Below, piece by piece: positions 20,444 through 49,105 of a stretch of DNA of 64,000 nucleotides. A program made the position numbers and the translations under genes. This DNA is from Prorocentrum cordatum (lineage: Eukaryota). Location: contig CAUYUJ010000114.1 in NCBI GenBank assembly GCA_963575745.1, forward strand, positions 248,001-312,000, read 5' to 3'. The notes beneath the pieces were generated by a model. That model saw only the letters and a list, made by a program, of their open reading frames with translations, did no database searches and was not told the origin of the DNA. Position 1 is the first letter of the stretch; the number at the start of each line of letters is the position of its first letter.

Positions 20444-20550
20444 CCCAGAGGATCGGCGATTGCTAGGCTAGGCCGGGTGAAGTTCAAGTGTTGCCACAGC
20501 GCTCAATTCTTCGCGCAGGACTTGGAGTGCTAGCCTAATACTTAAGTGCA
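20444..20550 (+). repeat. Left TIR and subterminal repeats
   Basis: TIR at 20444-20466; subterminal GTTCAAGTGTTGC, ACTTGGAGTGCTAGC and ACTTAAGTGCAC. Confidence 0.8.
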
Positions 20551-20679
20551 CTTTCCACATCTATTTAGCGGTGTTTGTGGTTTGCGGCTTGTGGCGCGCT
20601 TGTGCGTTAGCAAGTTCGCGTTCTTGTTTGTCGGGTTTATGTCGCGCGGTCTGTTACTGACGCGAACTGTGCGCACAAA

Positions 20680-20719
20680 ACATCATAAACATCATCACCA
20701 TCATCAACATCATCCACAT

Positions 20720-20753
<34 letters not shown>

Positions 20754-21772
20754 ATCATCATCATCGACATCGGCATCATCATCATATGTTCACCATCGTC
20801 AACTTCCGACTGCCCTTACGGGAGAGGGAGATGATAATATATAAGATGGATGAGGATGATGGTGGCGATGAGGCGGAGGAGGAGGAAGATGAGGAGGAGG
20901 AGGAAGGGGGAGGAGGAGGAGGAGGAGGAGGAGGAGGAGGAGGAGAAGGAGGAGGAGGAGGAGGGGGAGGAGGAGAAGGAGGAGGAGAAGGATGAGGGAG
21001 AGGAACGGGACCATAATGATGCTGATGATGATGAGGAAGAGGACGAAGATGATGATGCTGGGGAATATGAGGATGATGATGAGGGCGAGGACGGGGGGGG
21101 GAGAATGCGAAGGAGGAGGATGATGAGGAGGAGCAGGATGAATAGGAATATAGGATAATCCATATGAGAGGGATGAGGAGGGTGGATGGGGATGAGGAGG
21201 AGGACGAGGGGAGGATGATGACGTCGACGCGAAGGATGAGGCGCAGGAGGAAGAGGAGGAGGAGGATGAGGAGGAGGATGGGGACGACGATGATGATGAG
21301 AAGAACCAGGGAGGCGGATGATGAGGAGGAGGAGGAGGGGGGATGAGGAGGAGGAGGGGGATGAGGGGCATGTGGAATGGGGGGATGATCTGTATGAGCG
21401 GTAGCAGGCGGCGCATGGCGAACATTATGAGCAGGAATTTGGTGTGGATGATGTTCAGTGCGATAGTGCCGATGACTATTCTGACGATGTTGATGATATT
21501 GATGATGGTCATGGTGTCGATGATGATGATGTTGGCGATGACGGTCATGATGATGATGGTGGTGATGGTGATGGTGATGATGTTGATGACGATGCTGATG
21601 ATGACGATGACGATGATGATGATGCTGATGATGATGACGATGACGATGACGATGATGATGATGATGATGATGGTGATGATGCTGATGATGATGATACTGC
21701 TGCTGAAGCTGATGATGGTGATGATGATGATGCTGATGATGATAATGCTGATGCTGATGCTGATGCTGATGC

Positions 21773-21816
<44 letters not shown>

Positions 21817-22680
21817 GTGGTGCACATCGTCCGTCCATCGGATGCGTCGCGTCGCTCGCTGCCCGCAGCGCCATGCCAGCATTCAAGCTGGAGGTGTCCC
21901 CCCTCAGCCAGCAGCAGAAAGCAGCTTGGATTGGCAGAGGCTGGGCGCGGGACGCCATGGCGGAGCGGGGCGGCGGCGACAGGGGTGGCGGCACGGCGCC
22001 AGCCGACACGATGGTCGAGTCCCCGTCCTCGATGATGGAGCTCGGGCACATCGAGTCGACCAGCCGCCACCCCGACAACGCTGGCCTGCCGATGCGCCCG
22101 TGCCACTACTGCGCCATCCCGCCGAGCGTTGCAGCAGGCGCGCTCGGCGACACGGAGGGGTGAGTGAGGACGGAGGAGGACGGAGGGATAATATGGACGG
22201 GGATGCGGAATAAGAGGACGGAAGAGGAGAAGGAGGAGGAGGAATACGGAAGGACGGACGGACGTAAGGAGGAGGCGGAGGACGGAGGGACGCGAGGAGG
22301 AGGACGGATGAGGAGACGTACAGGGGGATGACGGAGACGGAGGCGTGCGCGTATCTAGGCACATGCGAACGCGCGCACGCGCACGAACACACACACACAC
22401 ATACACACACACGCACACATACTCCACAACTTACCACGGCATACGCCACACGTACATACACTTGCACACGCACCCCGCATGCGCACGCACACGAGCGCGC
22501 GCTCGCACACATTTACACACACCCACACACACACACACGCACACACACATGTTCACACGCTCACACACACACACACACACTTACACACACACACACACGA
22601 GTGCACACACACACACACGCACGCACGCACGCACGCACGCACGCCGACACGCACGCGCACGTACGTACGCGCGCACACGC
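20680..22680. repeat. Microsatellite block: (CAT)n, (GAG)n, (GAT)n, then (CA)n/(CGCA)n, with a short unique island at ~21820-22160
   Basis: Directly visible. Confidence 0.9.
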
Positions 22681-22951
22681 ACGTTCGGACATGAGCGAAG
22701 CGCGCGTGTGCGGACACACTCGGTCCGTCCAGGGTTCGAGCGGTTCGGCGGCTCGGCCCGTTCACCCTCGGAACTCGCTGGCCCTGGACCCCTTCGGGCC
22801 CAGGCAGATACGTTGTAGTTGGCTCCGTCTCGAAACGATCGCCGCATCGAAATGGTTCGGGCCACGTGGCAGTCGCCGCGCCGTCGACCGCGACGATGTC
22901 GAAACCAGTTCGTAGCTGTTTTTTGTGGCTCGAGGCCATTCGGTCGAGCGG

Positions 22952-25900
22952 ATGGCTTCAGGCCAACGCTCGCGCGGCCTCGATGCGGACCAGATCTACG
23001 AGGCGATCGAGCCGCATGCGGTGAACATCGGTTGGCTCGAGTACGGATCGTCGCCTGGCAAGGACAAGTTCGACGAGAAGTGCCAGGACACTCTGATGGT
23101 GCACGCCGAGGCGCGCATCCGTGTAAATATGTCCACGTCCGTCCACGCCCACCTCAACTCGCCTCCCCCCGAATCGTGCGCCTCGTCGCTGTGCGCGTCG
23201 TTCCCCCGCTTCCCTACTCCCAGTGTTCCTCCACGCAGCCGGCCTCGTCGCCCTCCTCCCTCGACCGTGGCGCGGAGGAGGAGGAGGAGGAGAAGGAGGA
23301 GGAGGGCGACGACGACGAGGAGGAGGATGAGAAGGGACGAGGAATTGCAGGACGAGGATGAGGAGGAGGAGGAGGAGGAGGAGGAGGAGGTGGAGAAGGA
23401 ATGATGAGTAGGACGAGGAGGAGGAGGAGGAAGAGGAACGACGAGGAGGTACGAGGCGTCTAGGAGGAAGGAGGGATGAGGATTTGCAATCTAGCTGCCC
23501 GCAGGCCCTCGCGGCGCTGGAGCGCGCCGTGCCCAACATGGCCCTGGGCCCCGAGGCGTCGCGCATGGCGATGCTCCGCATCGCCAAGGACCGCGCTGCC
23601 GAGTGGGGCTTGACCAGCGCGGCGCAGGAGGAGTGGGCTGACAAGACGGCCAGGAAGTTCTCGGGGCAATAAAATCCATCGGTGATCCATCGGTGAGTTA
23701 TCGGTGAGTTATCGGTGAGCCATCGGTGAGCCATCGGTGAGCCATCGGTGAGCCGCCGATGTCTTACTGCATCCCAGGCCAGCCCAGGTCCGGGCTACCC
23801 CCCTGCCCCAACCAACCGAAAATCGAGCGGGGGCGACGGTGACGAATGCGACGAGGCGCGATGAGGAAACCGACGATGACGAGAGTGGAGGTGGTGAGGG
23901 TGGCGACGACGATCGAATAACAACGGCGACGCCGAATCACGACAAGGAAGATGATGACGATGAAACCGACGACGATAGTAGAGAATATGAGCGATGACGA
24001 CGAGGATGAGGAGGCGGAGGAAGATGAGGGAGGAAGGATGAGGGATGAGGGAGGAAGGATGAGGGAGGAGGGAGGATTGATGATGATGGTGATGATGATG
24101 ATGATGATGATGATGAGGAGGAGGAGGAGGAGGAGGAGGAGAAGGATGAGGAGGAGGAGGAGGAGGAGGAGGAGGAGGATGGAAAAGGGACGAGGGAGGA
24201 TGACCCGAAGCCCGAGCGCATCACCACCTTCACGCCGCTGAGGGGCCCCCGTCGCTTTGCATAGGAGGAGGATAAAGGAGGAGGAGGAGGAGGAGGAGGA
24301 GGATAAGAAGGATGATGATGATGGCGAAGATGAGGACTATGATGATGTCGATGATGGTGATGAGGAGGGGGATGCGGAAGATAAAGAGGGGGGGTGATGA
24401 GGAGGAGCAAGTGGAGGAGGGGCGGATGATGAGGAGGAGGAGGAGGAGTAGCATGGGAATGATGAGGATGACGATGATGACGAGAATGAACATGATGAAG
24501 ATTATGCTGATGATGAGGAGGAGGAAGAGGATGCGTGAGGAGGAGGAGGATATAGGATATGCCGATGAGGAGGATGAGGATGAGGATGACGATGAGGAAG
24601 ACGGGTCTGGGGAGGAAGTGGAGGCGGGGGGTGAAGGGGGAGGCGGATGAGAATAAGGATGAGGATGATGAGGCGGGGGATGAGGAGGCGGAGGCGGTGG
24701 AGGAGGAGGATGGGGGTAGTGGAGGGGGTGGATAAATAGGAGGGGGAGCAGGAGGCGGATGATGAGAATGAGGAGGATGATGAATATGAGAATGATGATG
24801 ATGATGATGATGATGACGATGATGAGGGCGAGGACGAGCGCGATGAGGATGACGAGGAGAAGGAGGGTGATGAGGGGGACAATCGCTGAGGAGGTTGGTG
24901 ACGAGCAGGGTATGGTGAGGCCAATCAAAAACATCAAGAATACTGTGATAACGAAGTTGGTGCTGATATCGTTGATGACGACGACGATGACACGGGTAAG
25001 TATGCTGGTGATGAAGATGACTATGCTGACGGTGGTGGTGAGGATGAGGGCGATTGCGATGATGAGGGTGATGACAATTAGGAGGCCAATGATAATAAAG
25101 ATGATGATGAGGAGGATGACAAGGAGGATGATGACGACGACGAGGAGGAGGAGGACGGCTGAGGATGAGGAATAGGAGGAGGAGGAGGAGGAGGAGGAGG
25201 AGGCGGAGGCGGAGGCGGAGGAGGAGGAGGAGGAGTGGGAGAGAGGGGGGAGGCTGTATAAGTATGATGAGGAGGATGCTGGTGAGGAAGGAGGAAGCGG
25301 AGGGGCGATGTGGACGATCGAGCGAGGGAGTGCCCCCCCCCGCTGCCCAGGCTCAGATCCATCGGGCGGCACATGTACGACGCGCTGAGGAAAGAACGTT
25401 CGGGTGACGAGACCCCGCGCTGGCTGACGCAGCTCAGACAGAAGCGGGCCTCGCTCGGCGTCACCGTCAACCGCGACCAGGTGCGCATTTGCGTGAAGCG
25501 CCGTCCTGCGCGAGCGGGTGCAGAGGAGGCAGAGGAGGCAGAGGAGGCAGAGGAAGCCGAGGAGGCAGAGGAGGCAGAGGAGGCCAATAAAGCAGCTGCT
25601 GAGGAGAGTACCCCACGAACTCGGAAGTCGAGGAAGTGGAGCGCGCCTGCTGCTGCTGCTGTGTGCCAGTACGACCCGAAAGAGGAGGTGGCGTGGCGGG
25701 CGGTCCCTGGCTCAAAAGTTCCAGAAACAACGGACACGATTTATGCGAAGCCAGGGGCCGCCCCGACGGACATGATGATGGCGAAGTTCGCAGACGGCAC
25801 GGAGCTCCCGTTGCCGACGCTCACGGTGGCGGCGTGGGCAAGCAGCAAGCAGGCGCGGCCAGCGAGCTCGAGCCGAGGTGGTGGTGTCCACGTGAAGCAG

Positions 25901-26746
25901 GTGCGGGACGACGGTGCTGTGTTCAAAGTAGAGGATAAATTATTGAATAATGGGAACCCTGGAGTGGTTCTCAAGATCGACGGAAGTCAAAAGATCCAGC
26001 TAGCGTACAAGCACCGCGGCAGGGAGACGGCAATTGCATTGGCAAAGAAGTGGTGTGAACAGATATACAAAGGCCGCCGCACCGTCGAGGACTGCAAAGC
26101 AGAAAAACAAGTCGTGGAGAAGAACCTGGGCGTGGGCAAGAGGGTGATCAGGAAGCCGACGGCCGACGACAGCATGGGCAGTGGCGCGATCATGAAGAGA
26201 GGCAAACCAGCTGGACATCAATCAGGTGGTGCTGCTGATGATCCACACGATGATGATGACGAGGGCCCTGAAGATGGCCACGCCGAGGATAAGGGCGGCG
26301 GCGGAGGCGAGGGCGGCCAAGAGGACGATGATGGAGAGAAGGGCGCGGAGGATGAAGATGAGGAGGAGGCGAACGCGGAGGAAGAAGACGAGGAGGAGGA
26401 GGACAAGGCAGAGGGCGGCGAGGAGGAGGGAGAAGAAGAATCTGCACATGAACAAGATGAGGAGGTTGAGGAGGATGAGGAGGAGGAGGAGGAGGAGGAG
26501 GAGGGCAACGAGGACTCATGCAACGAGGAGGGCGAGGCGCACGTGCGCAGGCGGCCCTCGATGCGGCTGTCGTCTGGCGTCGGCACCGCCACGAGCAAGC
26601 GCCCAGCTGGCGCCAAGAAGCACAAGCGCCACAAAACGACGCAGAGCATCCCCCAGCTCCCAGGTCCGACCTTCGGCACGCTGATGCAGCATCGGTTTCG
26701 CAGTTTGTCCTCCAGCCCGAGCGCGAACCCGGCCATTACCGACTGA
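22952..26746 (+). CDS. Transposon gene A, unknown function, 3 exons (22952-23110, 23505-23653, 25351-26746; ~567 aa) with an acidic C-terminal tract
   Basis: The exons join in phase through GAG|GC...CAG|G and CAG|GA...CAG|G junctions, giving MASGQRSRGLDADQIYEAIEP...HAE/ALAALERAVPN...EEWADKTAR/LRSIGRHMYDAL... The total of 1704 nt is divisible by 3. Confidence 0.7.
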
Positions 26747-27240
26747 GCGGGGGTAGAGCGCTGCCTTACGAGAGATCGGGGGGAGGATGATGAGAACGAG
26801 GAGGATGAGGATGAGGACGGGGCGGAGCGACCGAACCAATAAATGCTTGGCATCGGGCCACACTTGTTTTCGATAGGGCCAGCGCTGGCGCGCGTCGTAG
26901 CAGAGGCCCCGCGATGTCTGCGCATCGGCCTCGATGTAGGCCAGCTGTGCGCCACGACAGGCGCTGCTTTTGTGGCCACGTGCTCGATTGATCTGGCACG
27001 AAGCGCAGGCCCGTCTCGGTGTGCACGAACTCTGGCACGCTGCACGGAGTACGCACGAGGGATCGTTCGGCGACGGGCGAGCGGTGTCGATACCGAACGG
27101 CATGATGTGAGTAGTGGGGCGGTGGGGAGGGTGGACACGGCGAGGGGCGAATGCGACAGCGACGCAGCGTACGACGATGAGCGCGTTCTGACTCTGACGT
27201 CGAGGCGGATCCAGCCGATGCGGCGTGAGCCCCCCCGACG

Positions 27241-29235
27241 ATGGCGAGCGCTGCCCCCCCCCCCCCTTCTGCGGTCCTCGAAGAGGGTCGGGTCGAGCCA
27301 GCACCTCGGCGGCCAGGTCGAGAGAGGGATGCGTGTAGGGGGTGGCGGAGGGCAAGGATGAGCGGACAGAGTTCCTCCTCGACCTTCCTCCTCCGCGTGT
27401 TATTCCGTCTCCCCCTCCCCCTCTGCATCCTCCCCCCCTCAGTCTCACTCTCATCCTCCTCCCCCGCGTCCTCCTCCTCGTTCGCCCCCTCCTCCGACCG
27501 CTCTTCCTCGTCGTCGGCTTCCTCCTCCTCCTCCTCCTCCTCCTACTCCTACTCCTCCTCCTCCTCCTCCTCCTCCTCCTCCTCATTCTATTCCTCCTCC
27601 TCCTCCTCCTCATCCTCCTCCTCATCCGCCTCATCCTCCTCCTACTCCTTATCCTCCTCCATGTTCGTCGTCGGCGTCGTCGGCATCGTCATCCTGATCC
27701 TCCCTCTCTCTGTTTCGCTTGCCAGGCCACGGCGCCAGCGTCGCGGAGCTCCACGCGCTGGAGCAGAAGGCGCTGGAGCACGAGGCCGACCTCCAGAAGA
27801 TACAGGAGTTCGAGGCGAGCGAGACATTGCAGCGGCAGCTAGCCGACGAGGAGCGGCACCAGGAGAGCGGGCGCTGGGAGGAGAGAGAGCGCGACAATGC
27901 TGTGGTGGCCGTCAGCAGCAGCGATGATGCCCCACTGAGCGGCGGCAAGGGCAAGTCGATCGCCGCCGAGCTCGGCCTGAGCGCGGGCATCGGCAAGCGC
28001 GGCGTCGACAAGGGCGGCGCCGGCAAGGGCGGCAAGGGTGGCATGATGGCGCTGCCAGGGCTGACGATCGCCAAGGGCAGCGACGCCGCGGGCAGCGCCG
28101 CGGTCGACCGCCGAGGTGGCGGCGGCGGCGGCAGCGAGGGCACGGACGGCGTCGGCGCCGAGGTGGCGGCGACGCGCGCCGAGGGCACGGACGGCATCGA
28201 CGTCGCCGCGGACGTCGGCGCGGCCAGCGCCGAGGACATGGCGCCACCCCGTGCACCGCTAGGGGCGCAACCAGCGTGCCCCCTGCCGATGCCTGAACGC
28301 TCTCGCTCCCCTCATCGTCAGAGTCGACCCCTCAAAGCCCTCCTCGCACTGCCCCCCCCGCCCCCCGAAAGCCCACTCGCCCTGCCCCCTCGCCCTGCAT
28401 CATGGACGCCCCCCCCCCCGCCCTGGCACCCCCCCGCAGACGACCCCCCACCGGCAACCCCCTCACGAGCCCCTCGATGCGACTTTGACGGTGGGGGCGG
28501 GGCGGGAGCGTCGGGGGCATCGGCGCGGGGCAAGTTGATTTCGCCTCGAAGGCACCGCGTGCCGAGGGCGAGAAGCGCAAGAAGCGCAAGAAGAAGAGGC
28601 GGCGCGCGGCCGACGATGACGGCTGGCTCGCAGACGGTGGCTACGACACCCCGCCTGCGACGTGCAGGGGCGTCATCAGCACGGCGCCGTCCGAGGCGAT
28701 CCCCTCGGAGCAAAAGGAGATGGCCGAGGAGAGCGAGCACTGGGACGAGCACGCCGTAGAGGAGATCCAGCACGCCCAGCTGCGGAAGCTCAAGAGCGGC
28801 TCGAACACGCTCCCGCCCAGCGCCGAGCAGAGGGACTGCATCGCCGCGACGCCTGGAGTTCGTGGGACAGCCTGGGCCATGCAAAGCCCTTCCCCGTCCT
28901 CATCGCGTTCCCCATTGTCATCCTCCCCCTCCTCGCTACGCACCTCATCCTCACCCCCCCTCGTCATCATCTTCCCTCATTCCTCCCCAGCAGTCCCCTC
29001 CTCCTCATCCTCATCATCCTCAACATCACCTTCCTCCTCCTCCTCCTCCTCTTCCTCCTCCTCCTCCTCCACCTCCTCCTCCTCCTCCTCCTCCTCCCCC
29101 TCCTCCTCCTCCTCCTCCTCCTCCTCCTCCTCCTCATCCTCCTCCTGCTCCTCCTCCTCCCCCCCTCATGCACCCCGTCCTCCGTTATGCCCCCGTCGTC
29201 GTCCCCCCTCCTCGGTTTCCTCATAGCCCTCCTCC

Positions 29236-29271
<36 letters not shown>

Positions 29272-29272
29272 G

Positions 29273-29311
<39 letters not shown>

Positions 29312-32300
29312 AGTCGTGCTCCTCATCCTCCGCCTCCTTCTCCTCATCCTCCACCTCCTTCGCATCCGCATCACCCCCTCCTCATCTTCCTCCGTCTCCG
29401 CAGCATGCTCCTCATCGTGTTCCTCATCCTCCTCATCCGCCGCACCGTTCCCCATCCCCATCATCACCATCCTCCTCGTCATCATCATATCCATCATCAC
29501 CATGCCAATCCTCCTCGTCATCGCCATCATCAAGTACACCCCCACACATCCCCGTTCACCAACATCATCATCACCAACACCAGTATCATCACCCGTCATC
29601 ATCATCAGCATCACCTCATCATCCCCATTGTAGACATCGCCACCATCATCATCGTGCTCATCATCGCCAGCCTAATCATCACCACAAACCGCATTACCAT
29701 CACAACCGCCATCGTCATCAACATCATCACCGCCAACACACTACCCGTCGTCGTTGTCGTCGGTGGTCATCGGTGAGCCATCGGTGACACATCGGTGGCC
29801 ATCGGTGAGCTATCGGTGACACATCGGTGAGCCATCGGTGAGCTATCGGTGCACCCCACACCTGCCACGTCGATTGCCCGATCCCACAGGACACAGTCAT
29901 ATGACGACGCGGCCACCCCCGAGAAGGTCCTCAAGGACGCCATCGCGAAGCTGGAGGGCAAGATCCAGAAGAGCCGATACGTTGAGCACGACAACAAATT
30001 CAACAAGCTCAACCCGCAGATCAGAAAGCCAGGAGGTGCCACTGATGCTGCCGCTGACGCGGGCGAGAAAGGGAAACGCCATGCGACAGGACTCGAGGAG
30101 TTGAGGAAGACAGTTGAGGACGGAGACGGCAGCTTTACGATTCGGAGTGCGCTGGGACGACAGTTCGACAGAGAGAAAGCGGGCTCCGCCAAAATGCAGA
30201 AGGAGTGGGACTTGTGCCTCGACCGCGAGCAGTACAAGCGCGAGTGGGCGAAGACCAAGTACGAGGGCAGGATCCTGAGCAAGCGCATCCACTCCACGAC
30301 GGTCAAGGAGAATTGGACGGAGACGGGCAAATTATGCACGTTTCTGCGGCTCCTCTACGAGGAGGGCGGGCCTCGCGGCCAGTGGGACCCCGACTGCATC
30401 AGGCAGTGCGCGGCGTACGCCGCCAAGTGCGTCGACCTGGGCTACCCCTACGCCCAGGTCGACGACTGGTCCGACGGCGTGGTGAAGTACATGTGGTTCG
30501 AGCAGAAGTGGACCAACGAGTTCGAGCGGCTCTGGTCGGAGGTGCAGACCCAAGACAAGGAGAAGGAGGACGACGCGCCCGCGGCCAGTGCACCAGCAGC
30601 GCCACCAGCGACCCCGCGGCCCAAGCCCAAGCCGAAGCCAGACGACGGCGGCGTGGCCAAGGCGATCAAGGAGGCAAAGGCCACGGTCGGCGAGGCGAAG
30701 AACGTCCTCGCGAGCGCCACCAGCGTGCGCGCGATGATCGACGACGCCTCCGAGTCGGACGAGTGGGCGTGGGCCAAGACGCCGCGGGTGCACGGGCAGA
30801 TGAAGAAGGAGATCGGCATCCTCACCAACTCGTTGCGGCAGAGCACGCTGGCCCACCTCATCATGACTGGCGTCAACGAGGCCACGAAGGCGCCATGGGG
30901 TAGCAACGCGGGCCCTCCCCTGTCCTCCTCCTCCTCCTCATCCTCCTCCTACTCCTCCTCCTCCTCCTCCTCCTCCTCCTCCTCACTCCTCCTCCTCCTC
31001 ACTCCTCCTCATCCTCCTCCTCCTCCTCGTCTTCCTTCCACTCCACCTCCTCCTCCTCCTCCTCCTCATCCTCCGCCTCCCCCTCCTCCTCCTCCTCCTC
31101 CTCCCCCTCCTTCAAGCAATCGTCGCCGACATCTAAGCCCCACAGCACGGCTCCTCCTCCTCTTTCTCCTCCTCCTCCTCCTCCTCCCTCCTCCTCCTCC
31201 TCCTCCTCCTCCTCCTCTTCACCCCCCCCATCCCCATCCCCTCCTCCTCCACCTCCTCCTCCTCCTCCTCCTCCCCCTCCTCCTCCTCATCATCCTCCCC
31301 CGTCCCCCGTCACCGTCCGTCCTCCCTCCTCCTCCTACTCCTCCTCCTCCTCCTCCTCCTCCTCCTCCTCCTCCTCTTCCTCCTCCTCCTCCTCTTTACC
31401 AACGCCATCGCCATCGTCACCATCACCATCATCGCCACCAGCATCGTCCGAATCATTACCATCAGTATCACCATCACCATCATCATCACCATCACCATCA
31501 CCATCACCATCATCAACACCATTATCATCACCATCATCGTCACCATCATCACCACCATGATCACCACCATCATCACCATCATTATCACCATCGTCGCCGT
31601 TGTCGTCATCACCACCAGTATCGTCATAATCACCACCACCAGCATCGGCATCATCATTGCTGATGCTATATGATCGCTGCTGTCGTCGGCATCTTCATCG
31701 TCATCATCACCGTCGTCATCGCTGTTGCGTGCACCCGCCCTTGCCCAGATCAAGAAGCGCCTGTCCAACACGCAGATCGTGAAGGGGAACATCGATATGC
31801 AGCCCGTGAAGGACTGGCTGGGGGCGCGCGGCGGGGGGGGCGGTGGACGGGGTGGAGGACGGATGGATCCTCCCATCCTCCTCCTCCTCCCCCCTCGTCC
31901 TCCTCCGCCTCCTCCTCCTCCTCATCCTCCTCCTCCTCCTCCTCCTCCTCATCCTCCCCTCCCCCCACTTCGTCCCCCTCCTCCTCCTCCTCCTCCTCGT
32001 CCTCCTCCTCAGTTTTTGTGGGAAAATGTTTCCGAATTCCACGCTCGACTGCGTGGTTCCTCCTGCTCCTCCCTCCTCATCCCCCTCCTCCCTCCCCTCT
32101 CCCTCCTCGTCATCGTCCTCCCCCGCCTCACTTCATCCACGCGTGTATCTGCCCACGTCGCGCGCTCGCAGGACGCCATCGAGGCGCTGCAGAGAACCCT
32201 GGGCAACGCTCTGGCCGCCAACGACAACATGCAGCAGGTGCAGAGGGGCAAGCACGACACGAAGGCCAGGCCCGAGCCGCCGCGGGACGACGACGCGGAT

Positions 32301-32342: not shown

Positions 32343-33491
32343 GCGCTGGTAGGCGCTGGCAGGCGGCTGGCGCACGCCGACGCTTCGTGATTGGGTGCGT
32401 GGCGCATGGGAGGTGTGCGAGCCAGTTGCACAATTTCAGTTGTGATGCACGCGACACGCCGTGCTGCAATAAATATCCCTGGGCCGTGGCTGAGCTGAAA
32501 CGAAAATTGACGGAAACATGCCCCCGAACACCTAAAAATACAGCAAAATTACCCCAAAACTACCGGTGAGGTACCGGTGAGCCTCCGGTGAGCCTCCATC
32601 GGTGAGCCATCGGTGAGTTTATCGAAACCGCTCGATACATGGTCGAAAAACGGAGGTGAGCCATAGGTGAGCCATCGGTGAGCCATCGGTGAGCCATCGG
32701 TGAGCCATCGGTGAGCCATCGGTGAGCCTCGAAATAAACAGAAAAACACATCAGAAATTGTGAGCCAGCCACGCTCGGGAGTGCACGTGTCGAGGTCAGC
32801 TGTGCGTCGAGGAGATATCGCGCGCTCCGCGCGCAGACGCCCCCAGCGCTCGCGGACGAGCGCGTGCATGGGGCGACGATTGGGGAGAAAAAAACACACA
32901 ATCAGATAGTGATGCCACCGCCTGTCGATCATGACCGTCCCTGTGTCCAGTGATCCCGTCCTCGAGGTAACGAGGATGCGCACGTTTATGATGTCTTGTG
33001 TGTGCATGCGGAGAGGGATGGCCATATCGAGGAGAGGGTATGTATAATTGGGGGCTAGGCGTTGTAATAGAACGTGAGTCACGCAACTCGGGATGGTGAT
33101 TAACCCTAATAGTGGTGATGATAACGATTATGAATAGGGGTGATGAGTTGCAGTATCGAGGATGGCGCAATCCAGCATGTGGTTGACCCCATCTACTCCA
33201 CAATTGGGGCCCTGAGTATGTACATCACCTCGTCCTCCTCCGCATCGACACCCTCCCCCTCGTAAGTCAGCGTGCCCCCCCTCCCGCCACCGCCCAACAT
33301 ATCACACATGCCCGATCTCACCCATCAGGTGCCGCACCCTCCTCCTCCTCATCCTCATCATCCTTATCCTCCCCCTCCTCCTCCTCCTCATCCTTCTCAG
33401 CTCCTCCGATCACGTGCTCCCTCTCATTACTTGGCACGAGTGTGCGTGTGCAGTCGTGCATAGCCGCGCAGATCTCGAGATTAGTTTGGTC

Positions 33492-36400
33492 ATGCCCCCT
33501 TCCGACAAGCGGAAGCGGAGTATCCCCGCGCCAGTTGCGCCCGAGGTGTTGGCCCGCACTCGGGCCGCTGCAGGTGCCGAGTTTGTGCATAACCTCCTGC
33601 ACCTCTACGGCACAGGCGTCCTGTCTGCTAAAGCTTTTTGTGAGCTTGCACATTCTGCATGTCAAGCTGGCGCTGAAGGTGAGTGCGGTGCATGGGGGCT
33701 GGAGCCGAGCGCGACGGGGAGTACGGGCAGATACCAAAAACACATAGAGCGGGTACTCGACAGCAAAGGGTTACGCAAAGTTATCCCCATTCCTTTTCGG
33801 ATCCCAATACAGTCTAGGGTAAAGGCGAAACGAACATATCATGACATGCTTGTACGACCGTTGCACGAGCTCCTCCACCAGGAAATCATGGGTCGCCCAC
33901 TTGCTCTCGCAGAAATGAAACATGCAATGGGGTCACGCGCGTGGCCTAAAGTATTCACCGAGCACCCAGTCTATCTCGAGTCAGACCCTGACGACCTGGT
34001 GGTGCCGATTGCTGTCTTCGTCGATTCGGCGCAATACGGTGGATCAGCTGGGGCGGGGAGGACAAAATCAATCCTCACGATATCATTAATAAATCTGGCC
34101 TCTGGGGTGAGACACATTGGTTTAGAATTTCGTAAACACTTGGCATGTAAATGTGGTTGCAGGGGTTTCTGTAGTTACCAGCGACTTTTTACTATGCTCC
34201 ACTGGTCTCTCGACAGCCTGGCGTTGGGGAAGTTCCCATTGGAGCCTTGGGATAACGGTGATTGGCCCCTCGGATCCGAGGGGTGCGCTACCAACGCTGG
34301 GAACGACTTGGGATTTAGAGCAGCTCTATGTTATCTTATGTGTGATTGGGAAGGCCTCACGCAATTTTATTGTGTACCACAATGGGGCCACAAATACCAC
34401 CCATGTCCATTGTGTTCGGCATCCCTCCAGACCATGTTCTCGTTCAGGCTATGCAGTTGCATGTGCATGTACACACAGGGGGGCGCTTATAGACACTTAT
34501 CTATGTATGTATGTATGTATGTATGTATGTATGCATGCATGCATGCATGCATGCATGTATGTATGTATGTATGTATGTATGTATGTATGTATGTATGTAT
34601 GTATGTATATATCGGGGGGTTACACACGCTGCGTGGGATGTCCGTGGGTCTGATAAGGGGCTTAGACGTGCGGTGTAACGTAGACGGATGATGATGACTG
34701 ACGCATGTGATGATATTACGGGTGATATTGCGAGATGGTAATATGAATGGTGGTGGGAAAATGTGGGCCCGATGATCAGGGGGACTTCCGTGCGAGAGAG
34801 CTCGGCGCGCGGGGCTGAGCGCGGTGGGCCTCCATACTGGCTCGGTCTGCGGCGTGGTGGCCGCGAGCCTCGGCACGCGAGGTGCGTTGAGGGGGGGGAG
34901 GAGGAGGAGCTCGAGGAGGGTGATGAGGCGGATAAGGATGATCATGATGATGATGCTGCTGTTGATGATGACGATGATGAGGATGAGGCGGAGCTCGAGG
35001 AGGAGGGGCATGCGGAGGGGGACGGGGATTAGGATGATGAGGGGCAGGACGAGGAGGAGGAGGATGAGGATGATGAGGATGATAAGGAGTGAGAGGATAA
35101 GGAGGATGAGGAGGATGATGCGGATGATGAGAAGGATGATGACGATGAGGATGAGGGGGAGGACGATGATGAGGAGGATGCGGAGGCGGATGCGGACGAT
35201 GATGCGACGGCGGATGGGGATGATGGTGATGATGAAGAGGAGGAAGATGATGAGGAGGAGGACGGGGATGGGCGGGAGGGAGTGACGAGGAATACGAGGA
35301 TGATGATGATGAGGAGGATGTTTACGAGGGGGGCGGGGGGGCGGGAGCGGATGAGGAGGAGACGGAAGAACACGATGATGATGATGATGCTGATGAGGAT
35401 GATGGTGGGGGAGATGATGATGAGGACGGGGAGGAGAAGGGGGATGACGATGAGGACGATTAGGAAGAATGAGAAGAAGGGCGAACGGGATGAGGACGAT
35501 GAGGATGAGGTGGATGAGGAAGAAACGTAATGTGATGGTGATGATGATGATGCTGATGGTGATACTGCTGCTGATGATGATGATTACCCGTTTAAGTAAG
35601 ACGATGACCACGGTAGCCACGACCATGGCGGGACTAAGTTGGGTGATAATATGATTGGACGGTAATGATCATGCACATCCTCACTGTCGCCTGCACTCGT
35701 CTCATCCTCCTCATCCGCCTCATCATTCCCATCCTCCTCCCACTCCTCATCATCCTCCTCATCCTCCTCATCATCTCACTCATCAGCATCACCGTCCCCC
35801 TCGTCCTCCTCGCGTTCCCCGTCACCATTATCATACGCATGTGCATTATCGTCATTCTACGCTTACCCCGTCCCGTCTCCATATACACGCCCCATTCCCG
35901 CGATCATCATCATTATGCCCCCCCACACTGGCTATCCGCACTCTTCTTCCACATCCACAATATCACCCTACTCATCGTCCACAACATCGCCACATCTCCA
36001 CACACACACACACACACGCCGTCATCAGCGTCGGTGCTCAATCGGTGAGCCATCGGTGAGTTATCGGTTCCTAGTACAGTGCACTACTTCATTTCATGCG
36101 GCCACTGGCACCCCCCCATGGGCGCACCTATGCGTTGTGTGCAAGCGCATGTGCTTACATGTGCAGGCTCATTGGTGCTATGGATCCTATATGGGTGGAC
36201 CACGGCCCTGATTCACACGAGCTCGCCACGCGCAGTGCTGAGATAAAGGTGGTCATTCGCACAGCCGAGGAGCGTGCCAAGCTGATTGCTGATTCACAGC
36301 TGGTGTTCGATACCAGACCGAAGACTGGACGGGGCCTCACGGTGACACGCGACACAGCCAGTCTGAATGCGGACAGCAACCCACTTGCCAAAGGAGATGA

Positions 36401-39203
36401 ACTCCATCCTCAGCCCGCACTGCCTGATGTCTTCATGTATGCGGTTGTGCCAGTACCGTGTGTGCTCAAGTTTTGGCGCCCGTCGTTAGCATCATTGACA
36501 AACCATCGGAATCAGATATTCTCTGGGTCTGGTGGCACCAACATTGCAGAGCATTACGCAGTTGACTACATGCACACAGTGGCGTTGGGTGTGGCTGCAG
36601 AGGCCACGGTTTCAATAGTTTGGGGTGTACTGGCAACGTTGGGGGCATCTTTTTCTACCCAAGCAGTGCAGCACCAGTTCGGTATATCGCGGCTTCAAAC
36701 ACTCTTGACGTCTTTCTATGAGAAGAAGCGACGCGATGGTCACCCAGTTAGCGAGATCTCCCAGCTTGCAGTATCTATGTTCGGGTCCCCAGCTAAGCCC
36801 AAGCTAAAGGCGAAGGCAGCCGAGACGCTTGGACTCTTTGACTTCTGCGTGGAGGCGGTCCTCCCCGTGTGCGCGCACGTGATAGAGCGTGGGCCCGCCA
36901 TCGAGGCGTGTGCGAACGCACTTCGCGATTGGATTGTGTTGTTGAAGGCCGCCCCCGATGTGCCGTCAGACGAGGAGTGCTCCGCGCTGAACATGCACTG
37001 CGCGCGCCACCTCACGTTGCTCGAGACCGCTGGTATACAGCTGAAGCCGAAGCACCACTTGTTTTGGCATTTGTCATCAAGGACAGCCGCTGGGACACAC
37101 CAAATTAGCATCAGCATTGACGATGCATATGATGGTGTTGATGGTGATGGTGATGATGCTGCTGATGATGCTGATGATGATACTACTGATGATACTGATG
37201 ATGATGCGGCTGATGATGATGATGATGGTGATAGTGATGCTGAGGATGCTGATGCTGATGCTGATGATGATGACGATGACGATGGTGATGATGGTGATGA
37301 TGATGATGATGGTGATGATGATGAGTCGGAGGTGTGAGGAGGATGACGAGGAAGCTCGATGATGGCGAGGGCAACGATTGACCCACCCACCCACACCAAA
37401 AGTACGTGTGCCCTGGTGCATAATCTAAACATGGGCGATGAGCGTGTGCCCTGGGGTGCATCTTCTGTGGGTATCCGTTGAATGGGGGCTCCCACTGGCG
37501 GATGATCACGACACCCCCCCCCGTCGCCCATCGGTGGCCTGGCTGGCTACCCGCGGGCATGGAGGGTGACAATGTGTTGTGACTGTCCGTCCCAACCCCC
37601 CGTTCGCGGATACCGTCTAGCCTTCGGCCGTTACTTTCCCGCCCGACCCCACGAGCTGCGTGAGGGGTGCGTCGGAGTGGGCGAGGCTTGGGCCCTCCAG
37701 GGGGCTGGGTGCCCCATGCCTCGGAGTCTTCTGGAGTCGTCGGCCTCTCAGGGCCCAGGCCCCCCCCTGTGTGCCCATAGCCTCGCATGACCCAGGGTCT
37801 CCAAGGCGTTTGAGGTGTCTTGGGGATCTTGGGTGTCTGAAGTGTTTAAAATTTGGCGTGTTCCTCGCCATGTGCGGGATCCGTGGATGGGGTCACGCAA
37901 AGGGGGCGAGCGGTTGTGGTTGTCCGTCCCAACACCTGCTTCGCGGCTCGATCTGCGAGTATCCGTTGAATGGGGGCTCCCACGGGCGGATGATCACGAC
38001 CCCCCTCCACCCCGCGCCCTGGCTGGCTAGCCGCGGGCAGGGATGGGGAAGGGGTTGTGATTGTCCGTCCCAACCCTCCGTTCGCGGATACTGTATAGCC
38101 TGCGGCTGTTCCCCGCCAGACCCCGTGATCCGCTTGAGGGGTGCGTCGGAGTGGGCGAGGCTTGGGCCCTCCAGGGGCCTGGGCGCCCCATGCCTCGGGG
38201 TCTTCTGGGGTCCTCGGCCTCTCAGGGCCAAGGGGTCTCATGTGTGTCCATAGCCTCGCATGACCCAGGTTCTCCAAGGCGTTTGGGGTGTCTTGGTGAT
38301 CTTGGGTGTCTGGGGTGTTTCAGTTTTGGCGTGAACCCCCCCCCCCCTATGCGGGATCCGTGGATGGGGCCATCAAAGGGGGCGAGCGGCTGTGGTTGCC
38401 CGTCCCAGCACATCCGTCGCGGCTCGATATGCGAATATCCGTTGAATGGGGGCTCCCACGGGCGGGTGATCACGACCCCCACCCCTCCCCTCCGTGCTCT
38501 GGCTGGCTAGCCGCTGGCAGGGGTGGGTGGGAAGGGGTTGTGTCTGTCAGTCCCAACCCTCCGTTCGCTGATACTGTCTAGCCTTCGGCTGTTCCCCGCC
38601 AGACCCCGCGATCCGCTTGAGGGGTGTGTCGGAGGGGGCGAGGTTTGCCCCCCCCCCCCCCCCCCCCCCCCCCTCCTCCCCTCCCCCAGGTGCCTGGGCG
38701 CCCCATGCCTCGGGGTCGTCTGGGGCCCTCGGCCTCACATGGCCCAGGGGCTGCAGGGTCTAGCACGGGTCTCCTGTGGGTCCATGGCCTCGCATGGCCC
38801 AGGGTCTCCAATGCGTGTGGGGCGTCTGTAGGATCTTGGGGATCTTGGGTTCCCGCTCTCCCCTCCGCGCATGCGCACACGCACTTGCGCGCCGCGTCAC
38901 CACCCTCACGCGTCCCCGACCTGACCTCACCATATATGTCTCTCGCTCGCTCTCTCTACCCCTCTCTCTCACTCCATATGTATCTGCCTCCGCTCACACA
39001 ATCCTAGCGCCGCGGATCTCTCGTATAGGATCCAGTGGCTGGGGCACCCGCGCCTATACGCCACATGGCGTGACGAGTCGTTGAACTCCCTGCTGTCCAA
39101 TTTAGCCGAGTCTGTTCACCCCTCTAATTTTGAGAGCGGCCTGTTTGTCAGATTGGACGTCCAAGCTGAACTAGGGGTTGGGGCTCATCGATCTCTTGTA
39201 TGA
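33492..39203 (+). CDS. CMC/CACTA-type DDE transposase, 3 exons (33492-34447, 36167-37081, 39029-39203; ~681 aa), apparently intact
   Basis: PIAVFVD (D1), LCYLMCDW (D2), HPCPLC, DYMHTVALGV, KPKHHLFWH and GHPRLYATWRDESLN (E) match the CMC signature C(2)C, (M/L)H, H(3-4)H. Introns are GC-AG (34448-36166) and GA-AG (37082-39028), both phase 2 with AG|G. The 2046 nt end in TGA. Confidence 0.82.
37440..38850. repeat. ~480-bp tandem repeat, about 3 diverged copies, in transposase intron 2
   Basis: ATCCGTTGAATGGGGGCTCCCAC recurs at ~37473, ~37961 and ~38437. Confidence 0.85.
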
Positions 39204-39599
39204 CGTGGTCGTGTACTGTGACATGTGCCAGCGAGCAGCGCATGCACATCACATACACAGGCGCGGCGTCGAATCGTGCGGCAGTGGCCCACGCCACCTC
39301 TACATGCCAGTTGAACGGCACCACCCCTCGCATGAAACCAGCAAACGAATCTCGACAGATACCGTTGCCCAATACTTAAACACATTGATGTCTATTCGAT
39401 TGCATGGGGCGTGTTGCTTTGCTAGCGTCGTGTCGCCCCGATAAGGCGTGACGTCGACGACTGCAAGGCCGTGGTCGACGGCATGAGGATGTGACTTGCG
39501 CCAGTTCGGCGACACGACAGGCCATCACGCATTTTGCGCAGCGGTCTGACACTGTTGTTTCACTTGTCCTCTCGTTCACTCAACCACCTTCGCACTTAC

Positions 39600-41079
39600 G
39601 CATGCACTCGCTCACCCACCCACCCCACCCATTCATTCAACCAGCCAATCATTCCGTTACCAACTCACTCATTCACTCATTCTTTCGCTCACCACCCACC
39701 CACCCACCCGTCCAACCACCCACTCACTCACTCATCAAACCACCCGCACACACACACCAACTCACTCACTCACTCACTCACTCGCCCACGCTCTCACCAA
39801 CCCGCACACTCACCCACCAACCCACCCACATTCCCAATCGTTCACTCACTCAATCGCACCTTGCCCCACTCATCTTCACCCGCTGCGCCTCTTCACCCCC
39901 ATAGTCCTCCTCATCCTCATCATCATCATCATCATCATCCTCATCCGCATGTTCATCTCCCATCATCACCATCATTATCATCCTCCTCATCATCCTCCTC
40001 ATATTCCGCATCGTCCTCATCCTCATTATCTGCATCGTCGCCATCCGCATCATCATCAGCACTGTCCGTTCCATTATCATCACCCTCTGATCCTCCTACA
40101 CCTCATCATCCACATACTCAGTCACATCGTCCGATTCCTCCTCCTCATCCCCTCCCCCATCCCCCTTATCATCCTCCCTCCTCCATCTTCCCAATCCCCC
40201 CAACCCCCCCTCCTCGCCCCCCCCCATCATCTTCAACATCCCCATCCTCCTCCTCCTCCTCCTCATCACCCTCGTCATCACCCCCTCCCCTCATCCTCAA
40301 CACCATCCCCATCATCTTCACCAGCATCAGCCTCATTCTCAGTATCCGTTCCATCTCCATCAACCTCCTCATCGTCATCCTCCTCCCCACCCTCATCCTC
40401 CTCACCAGCGCCCCCTCATCCTCATCGTCTTCTCCCTCCTCATCATCACCATGCTCATCCTCGTCCTCATCATCCTCGTCCTCATCATCAGTCGCACCCC
40501 CCTCCCCGTCACAATCGACCATCGATACTCAATCATCCTCATCGCCCACATCCTCCTCACCCTCATCACTCTGCATCGTCGCCCATCGTCATCATCGTCG
40601 TCCTCACAACCCCCTTGCCCCCATGCCCCTCCGTCCCATCCGCTCACCCCGCCCCATTCATCATCCTCGCATACACACCCCCCACATCACCCCTTTCCCT
40701 CTCCGTATGCACATGCGCTGCAGCATCGGCGCGCGGCGCCTGGATGAAGACCTCCGCCGCTGTACGTGCCCAGTCACCGACCGCTGGCTGCTTGAGGCAG
40801 CGTCGGGCGCGGGCACGGAGGGCGGTGATTGTTATGTAATTCGATGATGGATGGGAGGGTATGGCGTGGACGATGGGGCGATGCGGGTGCGACAGCGGAT
40901 GGCGATGGCGGGGCAATGTTTGAGGCTGATGGTGATGAAGGTGAAGAGGAGGACAACGATGAGGATCATGACGGGTAGGATGATGATGTTATTGGCGAGT
41001 GTGATGATGGTAATGATGAGGACGATGATGAGGCCGCGGACGAGGATGATGATGGTGGCGGTGCCGATGATCACGGTAC

Positions 41080-41118
<39 letters not shown>

Positions 41119-41127
41119 CGATGACGC

Positions 41128-41165
<38 letters not shown>

Positions 41166-41772
41166 GTGCGGATGATGCTGATGCCGATGCTCATGATGCT
41201 GAATCTGATGTCAGATATGATTAGGAATGGTGCGAAGGGTTAATTGCGTTGTTGCGGATGGTCAGGGTGATGTGTACGACGATGGCGAGCGCGATCCGAC
41301 AATGTGGGTAATGTGGGTGATTGGGAATATAGTTGGGCGTGCAACAAGGCGATAATTAATGTGAGGGGCGGGGTGCGTTGGATGCCGCGGATGGTAATAG
41401 CATGCGGATGCGGGTGAGGATGATTGCGCCGCGGAGTATCATGATGCGGATGATGAGGGTGTGAATTGCGAAGGGGACGATGAAGGTGATGACCACGGTG
41501 ATGGGGAGGATGATACTGATGGTGGCCAGGGCGAGGATGTGAGTGGCGATGGCGACGATGATGCTGATGTGGAAGATGCGGATGGGGTGGGGTGGGTTTG
41601 GTGGGTGGGGGTTGGGTGGTGGTAATGGTGAGGACGAGGGGGGTGTTGGTGGGGTTGATGATGGTGACACACGTGGGTTGCGGAGGGGGTGTGGATTTGG
41701 GTGATGACGGAGGTGGCGCGGTGAATGATAACGACGAGGCGCGGTTGGGGATGATGATGATGATGCTGCTGC

Positions 41773-41812
<40 letters not shown>

Positions 41813-42320
41813 AATGCGGAAGTGGGATGGTGTTGGGATGGTGATGATGATGATGCTGATGATGATGCTGATCCTGGGGGTGATGTGGCTGATGACGAAA
41901 CTGAGGACGATGAGGAGGATGCGGATGGTGCTGATGACGGGGCGGATTATGATGCTGGTGAGGAGGACGGTCACGATCATGCGGATTATGATGCTGCTGG
42001 TGACGATGTAATTATGATGAGGACGACGATGCGGCAGATGATAAAGATGATGATGTGGATTCGCATGAGTAGCAGTGGGACGATGATGATGCTGCGGGCG
42101 AGGACGAGGCGTATGATGCGGATGCGGATGCGGATGCGGATGCTGCTGATGATGATGATGCTGATGATGATGATGATGATGAGGAGGGGGACGAGTCGCA
42201 TGCGGATGAGGATGATGAGGAGAATGAGTAGGATGAGTAGGATGAGAACGCGGATGAGTAGGATGAATCTGATGCGGATGCTGATGATGAGGATGCTGAG
42301 GACGATGATGATGCCGACGG

Positions 42321-42364
<44 letters not shown>

Positions 42365-42713
42365 GCGATGCTGAGGAGGCGGGGGTGTGACGAGGATGAT
42401 GATGATGGTGAGGACGGGGAGTATGTGGATGATGATGATGAGGAGGAATACGATGATGATGACGACGATGATGAGGACGAGGGTGCTGTTGATGAGGAGG
42501 AGCCGTACGAATATGAGGACGATGAGTATCATGTTGGGGAACATGATGAAGCGTATGACGATGATGAGCAGGATGATGAATGACGAGGAGGAGGAGGAGG
42601 AGGATGAGGATGATGAGGACGAGGGGGGATGGGGATGCAGACGTGGAATATGATGATGATGATGATGATGACGATGATGATGATGATGATGATGATGCTG
42701 ATGATGATGATGC

Positions 42714-42744
<31 letters not shown>

Positions 42745-42770
42745 GATGATGTGGAATGATGGTGATGTGG
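39600..42770. repeat. Low-complexity block: (CACT/CACC)n, (CAT/CCT)n, (GAT)n
   Basis: Directly visible. Confidence 0.9.
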
Positions 42771-43105
42771 GGGGGTCCCCAGTCTCCGCGCACGCCTCAC
42801 CCGCATCCCCCTGCTCGTCGCCTTCACCCCTTCCAGAAGCTGTCGGGCTCGACCCCGCGGCACGGGCCCCTGGGGGAGGGGGGTGAATCGTTCGAGCTCA
42901 GACTCTGACACCGACATGGAGGCGACAAGTCCGTCGGAATCAGTCGTGAATGACACCGATCACCTTTATGACCCGAGGGCGCAATTTCAAAAAACCAACC
43001 TGCCCCCCCCCGCCCCCTCCCCCCAGTCCAACGCTGTCCTTGCACAGTTTTTGCGCCCCTTCATTCTGGTTGGGAGGGGTGGTGCACACGGAAGACATTG
43101 GGGTG

Positions 43106-43195
43106 AATTCGGTGGAACGACCTGCCCCCCACGGAGCGGACGGCATCGCATGTTGGCCGTGTCGCTTCATGGGGGGCAGGTCGTTCCACCGAATT
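43106..43195. repeat. Perfect 26-bp inverted repeat forming a 90-nt hairpin
   Basis: AATTCGGTGGAACGACCTGCCCCCCA (43106-43131) and its exact reverse complement (43170-43195). Confidence 0.9.
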
Positions 43196-44780
43196 GCAGA
43201 GGTCGGTTCTTCCCGCGCACGCCCCTCCGGGCTCCCAGGACGCAGTTCTAGCCGAGGCGCGATCGTTCCGCCACCTCCCGAACACGTGCAAGGCCATGTC
43301 AACATCGGTGGCCGACACGGTCATGCTCAGTCTGTTTCGCAAGGCTCCAGATGGAACCCAATTTCCCGCGTCCGCGAACGAGAGACAAGAAACGACCTAA
43401 CAAGGGGTTGGTCTGGAGGATTGGGGGATGGAAGGAGGGCTATGCATTATAATAAGGACTACGGTGTACGTGGTGCACGGGTAAACGTGAAGACAAAAAC
43501 GACACACGCACACACAACACCAACGACAACACCAACGACAACAACAACAACAACAACACCACAACAACAACAACAACAACAGCAACAGCAATAACAGCAA
43601 CAACACCACCACCACCAACAACAACAATATACACGCGTGTGTTTGCGGACGCGCGGGAATTGGTTTCAATCTACTAGGGATGGGCACAACATGGTCGGTT
43701 TATGCCTACCCGTGAGTCTGTGCCTAGGAGCGGTAGTCTCACCGTGGGATGGCTCCGTCGGATCGGGTACCATGTGTTCCCGCAGCTAGATGCCAGTCTG
43801 TATGCATACTATCACGACACGTTTTTCGCTGCGGCCGCCCCCTCCGACCACGAGAGGGTTGTCCCAGAGTTCACGGACGCAGAGCTGCTCGCCATGATTG
43901 GGTGACGTTTGCGGAAGTAGTAACACGACAAGTGAAAAAGGGATGGGGAGAGACCGACAAACACAATTCGTTGAGTCAGGTGTCTTAAGGATGTTTCAGT
44001 TTTTCGCATGGTCGGCGTCGCGCCCCAAACGGCCCAACATGCCCCCAAGACCGCGACAAGACAGCCCACTTGCAAGATTGATCCCCCGTTCCGCCCCCCT
44101 TCAACAGAAGCGACCCAAAAACTCCCCGCGACTGCCCAAACAACGCGCCCACACGAGTGTCGAAGCATGCCAGAGGGCAACCACAAGGCATGCAAACCAT
44201 TGGCCGAGCCTTCCTCTCAACGATGCGCCCTCCCCAGGCTCCCGAGATGCCCCAATATGCACCCAAACGCTTGAACGAAGTTCCAACAGAATACGACCAC
44301 GCCCTCCCAGAAACATCAAGATATTCCAGGAGGCCCCAGCGATCGATGCTTCCCACGACATCCAAACTAATCCCAATGAGGGGCCGTACGCAAATTGCAA
44401 AATGGCACGTGCCCCCCATCGTTCCTACTCCCCTGATCTTGTAATTATGAGTGCAGCCGCCACCGCCGCACGCAAATCGACGATCCTTTCCTCGTCGCCG
44501 CTCCCTCGGTAGGTCGCGGCCCATCGGCGCACGTCGTCTTGGTCGACATAGATAAACGTTCCTCAGGCCCGTTTGTACACGCACACACACACACACACTC
44601 GCGCACCAGTAAATAATTCCCACGAACATAACTAACGATGTGCGTAACCATGAATATCCGATCTGATCGGCAACCCGTTCGACTTATGACAGCCCCCTGT
44701 GGACGATACACGCACACCGCAATGTAAAATGAGTAGATTTGCGTGTATATCGTATACTGCACATACATTATTATTCTTAT

Positions 44781-44864
44781 GATAGCACTCCAATCCCTAT
44801 GCTAGCACTTCAAGTCTTACATGTAAATCACACGCCTTGCGCTAGCAATCAGGGATCCTCTGGG
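44781..44864 (-). repeat. Right TIR and subterminal repeats
   Basis: CTAGCAATCAGGGATCCTCTGGG ends at 44864; subterminal GATAGCACTCCAAT and GCTAGCACTTCAAGT. Confidence 0.8.
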
Positions 44865-49082: not shown

Positions 49083-49105
49083 TAGGGGGCGCCCTCTTGT
49101 AGAGG

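Follow-up and report, generated by a model that had tools for sequence, protein, structure and literature searches.

A probable DNA transposon of the CMC-Transib clade, about 24 kb long and with a companion gene, in Prorocentrum cordatum

Does the DNA between positions 20444 and 44864 of the stretch analysed here represent a single mobile element and, if so, to which group of transposons does it belong? The stretch, referred to below as the window, comprises 64 kb of the genome of Prorocentrum cordatum (contig CAUYUJ010000114.1, positions 248,001 to 312,000 of the forward strand), and the part in question spans about 24.4 kb, is bounded by inverted ends and encloses three genes: A, B and a transposase gene. 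From the evidence set out below, 20444-44864 is probably a single copy of a large DNA transposon that moves by cut and paste and belongs to the CMC-Transib (CMCT) clade, with gene B as the companion of the transposase. It is a real mobile element, of a lineage that has no name here, and not a new kind of system. If confirmed, the finding would name a very large family that domain libraries leave unannotated and describe its anatomy (ends, a transposase of three exons and a companion gene); repeats in the genomes of protists and algae would be better annotated, and the finding would provide a deep-branching RAG1-like lineage with a partner of its own for comparing the evolution of RAG1/RAG2 and of TnpD/TnpA. 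Taken as a single copy with damaged flanks, it is an otherwise ordinary mobile element.

The transposase gene (33492-39203, + strand) was reconstructed by homology and consists of three exons separated by two introns. Exon 1 (33492-34447, +) begins with the ATG at 33492 and encodes the first catalytic aspartate, D1 (FVDSAQY), a CxCGCxGxC cluster, the second aspartate, D2 (MCDWEG), and a C(2)C motif; exon 2 (36167-37088, +) encodes DYMH, which corresponds to an [M/L]H motif, and KPKHHLFWH, which contains H(3)H; exon 3 (39036-39203, +) encodes GHPRLYATWRDESLN with the catalytic glutamate, E, and ends in the stop codon at 39201-39203. Exons 1 and 2 together align end to end with the relatives P0001-P0004 (best E 2.8e-62, 40% identity, 91% coverage), and exon 3 was located by means of full-length relatives, whose C-termini read ...GNPxxYSTFxDESLN. 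The donor of intron 1 is either the GT at 34442 or the GC at 34448, with the acceptor lying before 36167, and both splice models yield an uninterrupted open reading frame (ORF) from the ATG, of 679 or 681 codons, with no internal stop. Intron 2 runs from a GC donor after 37088 to an acceptor before 39036, and this GC donor is required because the spacing that the family maintains between H(3)H and GNP must be kept. GC-AG introns are compatible with dinoflagellates without being diagnostic of them. Two gene models among the relatives, P0001 and P0040, break off, or continue into unrelated sequence, immediately behind '...RT' with a V (a GTN codon); these breaks lie within one codon of intron 2 in the window, which suggests a common intron position.

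Judged from its sequence, the window transposase looks intact. It retains all 33 of the 33 residues that are near-invariant in the family, and D1, D2, E, the C(2)C after D2, D-x-[L/M]-H and H(3)H are all present. The C(2)C motif, PCPLC, stands 19 residues past D2, and DYMH and KHHLFWH precede DESLN, so that the C(2)C, MH and H(3-4)H signature of CMC transposases, placed between D2 and E by the initial annotation, is indeed found there. The same annotation, which was made from the letters of the DNA, had described three co-oriented spliced genes enclosed by the ends. Enclosure and orientation stand, the genes A (25286-26743), B (29831-31660) and that of the transposase all lying on the + strand; splicing is supported for the transposase only, with its two introns placed by homology, the conserved part of each of A and B being contained in one ORF.

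A profile search with the transposase family returned 8031 representatives at E<=1e-3, of which 1795 were found at E<=1e-30, and the family is thus very large. It has no Pfam model of its own, and the window pieces from exons 1 and 2 gave no Pfam match at E<=10. The Pfam models of CACTA transposons were sought in 121 sequences, made up of 43 relatives, three window pieces and 75 further relatives; neither Transposase_21 nor DUF4218 rose above its gathering cut-off in any of the 121, and far beneath the cut-off each matched once (Transposase_21 with E 0.18, in P0001; DUF4218 with E 0.022). By sequence, therefore, the membership in CACTA/EnSpm proposed by the initial annotation does not hold. 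Searches of the PDB by sequence were equally negative, with no match to the window transposase ORF at E<=10 and a best E of 0.16 for the family profile, and a scan of viral contigs returned no relatives of either the transposase or gene B.

An AlphaFold model was made of the full-length relative P0010, from a 46-row alignment that includes the window pieces, and was predicted with high confidence (predicted local distance difference test, pLDDT, 89.1; predicted template-modelling score, pTM, 0.86). In this model a three-strand meander carries D1 on its first strand, D2 comes just past strand four, and E belongs to a late helix. A Foldseek search with it gave 21 matches at E<=0.001 (best E 1.6e-5, probability 1.00), of which those listed are RAG1 chains. 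When the model was searched against structure representatives (VIA), the best match was the RAG1 core (Z 14.7, root-mean-square deviation 6.0, 453 residues aligned), followed by the amphioxus RAG1-like protein BbRAGL (Z 13.6), P element transposase (Z 10.0), HzTransib (Z 8.7), the transposase of ISCth4 (Z 8.6), Tn5 transposase (Z 6.6) and Hermes (Z 5.8); integrases are also found among the fold matches. The RNase H-like DDE fold that had been proposed for the transposase is thus supported by the predicted structure, which resembles RAG1, RAGL, P element transposase and Transib. The modelled protein shares a RAG1-core-like architecture, and this by itself does not establish membership in Transib/RAG1. 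By analogy with DDE transposases and with RAG1/Transib, the transposase would pair both ends of the element and cut and rejoin DNA at an RNase H-like D-D-E metal site, and the Cys/His pairs of C(2)C...H(3)H may form a structural zinc site that braces the D-D-E residues, as in RAG1.

The CMC-Transib clade takes in EnSpm/CACTA, Mirage, Chapaev, Transib and RAG1, and in En/Spm, a CACTA element, TnpA is a separate accessory protein beside TnpD. The transposase described here fits this clade because motifs and architecture agree: the accessible part of PMC12730594 uses the C(2)C and H(3-4)H motifs to define the CMCT clade, and CMC and Transib are treated as related clades in the accessible part of 10.64898/2026.08.26.747230. 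Its sequence fits a position outside CACTA proper and within the wider clade. The likeness to En/Spm lies in the general plan, both being large elements with terminal inverted repeats (TIRs), subterminal repeated motifs and a separate accessory protein. They differ in that the Pfam CACTA models are reached by none of the 121 sequences of the present family, that the termini in the window are CCCAG and not CACTA, with no 3-bp target-site duplication (TSD), that the accessory proteins A and B of the window belong to no Pfam family, and that the three ORFs of a related locus, L014 (see below), are parted by spacers with stop codons. Transib, RAG1 and ProtoRAG (BbRAGL) provide the best structural matches, over about 450 residues of the catalytic core, and share the arrangement of D-D-E with C(2)C...H(3-4)H (as given in the accessible part of PMC12730594), whereas sequence identity to them is only 8-12%, the five bases outside the two ends of the window element differ (TCCAT versus CAGCC) where a Transib-type 5-bp TSD would be a direct repeat, and its termini are not of the CAC type.

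Other divergent EnSpm-like lineages have such motifs as well. Lanisha, from the moss Ceratodon, and Plavaka and ESTA, from fungi, are described in the accessible parts of PMC12730594 and PMC8245031 as carrying both zinc-type motifs, and some of them extra genes; the two motifs are common to these lineages and the window transposase. The difference is one of description, the termini given in those parts being CA..TG, TGT..ACA and CATCA..TGATG, versus CCCAG..CTGGG here. More generally, the accessible part of PMC12730594 gives CMCT lineages termini of CA..TG in most cases and TSDs of 2-5 bp; the usual 5'-CA..TG-3' is not seen in the window, where the termini are 5'-CCCAG..CTGGG-3' and CA occupies positions 3-4. 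The transposase family is a large one that lies outside the Pfam CACTA models; it may be distinct from Lanisha, Plavaka and ESTA or identical with one of them, and it may already bear a name in Repbase or Dfam, for example as EnSpm-like or Lanisha-like. The literature searches made here turned up no account of an element of this kind in dinoflagellates or protists.

The ends of the element were identified from their inverted likeness. The left TIR, CCCAGAGGATC...GATTGCTAG (20444-20466, +), and the right TIR (44842-44864, -) are 23 nt long and are identical at 20 of 23 positions when CCCAGAGGATCGGCGATTGCTAG (20444-20466, +) is set against CCCAGAGGATCCCTGATTGCTAG (44864-44842, -), and the outermost 11 bases, CCCAGAGGATC, are exactly the same at both ends. 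This 11-mer has two matches in the window, at the two ends only and in inverted orientation (0.09 expected; two matches reached in none of 100 shuffles). Further inwards, the subterminal 13-mer TTGRAGTGCTAKC occurs three times in the 64 kb, each time within 91 nt of an end of the element and inverted between the ends (0.18 expected; three reached in none of 100 shuffles): one copy, TTGGAGTGCTAGC, is at 20522-20534 (+), 79 nt inside the left end, and the other two are at 44781-44793 and 44801-44813 (-), 52 and 72 nt inside the right end. Inverted termini with common subterminal motifs had been the starting point of the initial annotation, and in this respect it was correct. The transposase would bind the 23-nt TIRs, and possibly also the nearby subterminal motifs, which contain TGCTAG.

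Could these termini be a chance match, and the three genes a stationary cluster of domesticated or decaying transposon genes in repeat-rich DNA? An exact inverted 11-mer followed by at least 9 matches in the next 12 positions arises about 0.2 times per window by chance (30 Markov shuffles), and the TIR by itself is weak evidence for the ends of an element; the absence of a TSD and of a second copy in view also speaks for a chance match. Against it, the subterminal motif is common to the two ends and found nowhere else, the likeness of the ends begins precisely at CCCAG, with none in the 20 nt outside, the ORFs of the retroelements on both flanks break at these very points, running out 12-24 nt inside the TIRs, and the catalytic and near-invariant residues of the transposase are all intact. 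Since a match of TIR grade alone arises at the rate given, the case for the boundaries rests on the TIR, the subterminal motif and the breaks in the flanking ORFs together. A stationary gene cluster between chance termini is very improbable, and a bounded transposon remains the preferred interpretation.

Gene B (ORF 29831-31660, +) lies upstream of the transposase. Its conserved part occupies 29834-30895, and the remainder of the ORF enters microsatellites of the TCC/CAT type. Relatives were found in P0005 (E 7e-46) and P0006 (E 5e-41), and no Pfam family was assigned. Whether such a gene accompanies the transposase elsewhere was surveyed in 50 metagenome loci in which relatives of the transposase are encoded, and more than 2 kb of upstream sequence was available in L005, L014, L043, L044 and L046 only; as L044 and L046 are 99.9% identical, this amounts to four independent loci. 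In L014 (G+C 0.54), a B-like ORF (3092-4819) lies about 1.8 kb upstream of the transposase ORF (6624-8771), in the same orientation, and matches B of the window with a BLASTP E of 5e-6 and, in hhalign, a probability of 97.5% and an E of 5e-12. In L044/L046 (G+C 0.44), B-like exons at 7079-7570 and 7621-8529 (hmmsearch E 7e-5) lie upstream, and on the same strand, of a multi-exon transposase at about 9300-11470. The difference in G+C between L014 and L044/L046 indicates different hosts. In L043, a weak tblastn hint of B (E 0.013) was not confirmed by the profile search. The pairing of B with the transposase was thus found in two of the four independent loci, and from these sequences gene B appears to be a dedicated companion of this transposase lineage, linked to it across hosts. 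The recurrence of the whole layout, which the initial annotation had proposed as a check, is borne out as far as this pairing in L014 and L044/L046 is concerned, but the full order of A, B and transposase was not found in the metagenome loci.

By analogy with TnpA of En/Spm, gene B may act as a DNA-binding or regulatory helper that recognises the ends of the element or brings them together. RAG2 is a beta-propeller; the product of gene B differs from it in being predicted helical, and the gene is co-oriented with that of the transposase and not convergent. A broader proposal is that the transposase and gene B together make up an unclassified RAG1/Transib-like (CMCT) lineage of superfamily rank, widespread in marine protists, in which the two would form an obligate two-component system with a helical, possibly winged-helix partner, as an independent parallel of TnpD/TnpA and RAG1/RAG2. 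We put this forward tentatively, as the less likely outcome. Complex prediction for a non-cognate pair (P0010 residues 84-727 with window B residues 85-350) returned no answer (score 0.00), which speaks neither for nor against an interaction.

Gene A (ORF 25286-26743, +; 486 codons from stop to stop) is the first of the three genes. One relative was found, P0008, a protein of 387 amino acids labelled as coming from the transcriptome of the green alga Pyramimonas sp., with which gene A aligns over nearly the whole length (E 1.1e-40, 37-43% identity). The C-terminal half of gene A is acidic and of low complexity. Like B it has no Pfam family, and the existence of two accessory proteins without a family is thereby upheld. 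Gene A is probably a second gene of the element, less certain than gene B. In L014, the first ORF (563-1594) stands at the position equivalent to that of gene A and aligns with P0008 colinearly but weakly (E 0.01 over 127 residues). An ORF of L044 (3916-4899) was considered as a homologue of gene A and rejected (E >= 1).

Several observations count against the interpretation of the locus as one transposon with a companion gene, and the first group of these concerns the accessory genes. Gene B has no in-frame ATG at the start of its ORF or before its conserved N-terminal residues, and none precedes the conserved N-terminal residues of gene A; upstream exons of A and B, or decay of this copy, are possible explanations. 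In L005, the 4.8 kb that precede the transposase ORF hold no B-like ORF. The predicted model of gene B is of low confidence (pLDDT 55.8) and found no significant fold match, the best Foldseek E being 0.66 (several of the weak matches are winged-helix proteins) and the best VIA Z score being 6.4, to generic helical hairpins. The model is predicted to be helical, and in residues 132-222 the order helix-strand-helix-helix-hairpin resembles a winged helix, which is only a hint. The role given to gene B above is inferred only, because of this low-confidence model and the lack of a significant fold match. As to gene A, the first ORF of L014 matches A of the window with an E of 0.09 and an hhalign probability of 4%, and no homologue of A is detectable in L044.

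These last points bear on the alternative that gene A is a passenger, that is, a host or foreign gene captured by the element or lying within it, outside the transposition machinery. The single relative, the lack of a significant linkage to the transposase elsewhere, the missing start codon and the presence of Pro and Gly at the sites of two N-terminal Cys of P0008 would all agree with a passenger. Less easily reconciled with it are the position of A between the TIRs and in the same orientation as B and the transposase, the GGTGAGCCATC array upstream of A, which is like those before B and the transposase, and the colinear match of the first ORF of L014 in the same position. We regard a passenger as unlikely, and retain gene A as a probable gene of the element.

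The remaining points against a single transposon concern its flanks and its copy number. To the left lies a copia-like element (-), with an ORF at 18242-20467 that contains an integrase core and RVT_2 at 15870-18752, and to the right a long interspersed nuclear element (LINE; -), with an ORF at 44852-46621 (RVT_1), RVT_1 at 46587-47549 and an endonuclease at 47553-49112. Each is cut at the TIR, the ORF of the copia-like element upstream of its integrase and that of the LINE just past its RNase H-like TDGS motif, so that the element is flanked by two different retroelements. No direct repeat of 2-5 bp is found outside the ends (...CTCCAT / CAGCCT...), and the TSD of 2-3 bp that had been expected is absent, the three nucleotides being CAT on one side and CAG on the other. 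The reading frames of the flanks connect if 2 or 5 bp are removed, yet the product is not one recognisable protein, and neither a long terminal repeat (LTR) nor any other repeat linking the flanks is present in the window. One copy of the element is visible in the 64 kb, and its termini are absent from the 50 metagenome loci, the transposases of which are distantly related.

A different history would account for such flanks. The family would be real, but the 24.4-kb unit would be no simple insertion and would have arisen by recombination between two copies in the same orientation (one in copia, one in a LINE), by deletion of adjacent DNA through aberrant one-end transposition, or as an assembly join across a repeated element. 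That the flanks come from different retroelements, both truncated exactly at the TIRs, that there is no TSD and that the 5' part of the copia-like element, its LTRs and the 3' part of the LINE are found nowhere in the window would be expected from such a history, whereas no additional copy of the TIR or of the subterminal motif was found inside the element and the internal order of the genes is coherent. We consider this alternative rather unlikely, and continue to favour one copy of a transposon. On at least one side the DNA next to this copy is no longer the original: with two different retroelements as flanks, the copy is rearranged, a hybrid or wrongly joined, and each of the three routes just named could have led to it. 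As the flanks are not contiguous DNA, the original TSD may have been lost.

The length of the element, about 24 kb, is mainly due to the expansion of microsatellites and tandem repeats in spacers and introns. Tandem repeats cover 36% of the element (left flank 9%, right flank 25%). Within the transposase gene the exons are free of them (0%), and they make up 42% of intron 1 and 73% of intron 2; a 483-bp tandem repeat of 2.4 copies (37472-38647, +) is contained in intron 2. The 11-mer GGTGAGCCATC has 18 matches in the window at up to one mismatch (2.3 expected), of which 16 are inside the element, all on the + strand. It forms tandem arrays 1.5 kb upstream of the gene A ORF (23676-23754, +), overlapping the start of the gene B ORF (29760-29851, +) and 0.77 kb upstream of the ATG of the transposase (32601-32728, +), and a single copy lies in intron 1 of the transposase (36044-36054, +). 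That these arrays serve as common regulatory or binding sites is a conjecture.

Some further features were observed in the metagenome loci. In L014, a motif of about 40 nt, GGTGGAATCTTG...GGTGGYATCTTGA, is found at 217-275, 434-492, 1931-1974, 5741-5768 and 6520-6560, in the spacers around the three ORFs, and makes hairpins ahead of the first ORF and ahead of the transposase. In L005, two adjoining ORFs of 664 and 554 codons (350-4009, -) precede a complete, intronless transposase in divergent orientation; these ORFs belong to no Pfam family and have no match in the window or in the other loci. Just downstream of the transposase in L044/L046 is a multi-exon gene (11632-13230 of L044, +) with weak methyltransferase-like hints (Pfam E 0.03), and a piece related to it (E 6e-6) is found downstream of the transposase in L029 (2763-2954, +). 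The window yielded no counterpart of this gene; a domain shared between it and the N-terminus of the left-flank ORF was considered and rejected (BLASTP E 15).

Elsewhere in the window, an uninterrupted ORF of 2789 codons (2176-10542, -) belongs to a second, unrelated copia-like retroelement, with sub-threshold Pfam matches to a CCCH zinc finger, an integrase core and RVT_2; no similarity links it to the copia-like element at 15870-20467. Two tandem arrays with long units lie to the right of the transposon, at 54468-55711 (unit about 386 bp, 95-96% identity) and at 60108-62920 (unit about 720 bp, 84-90% identity).

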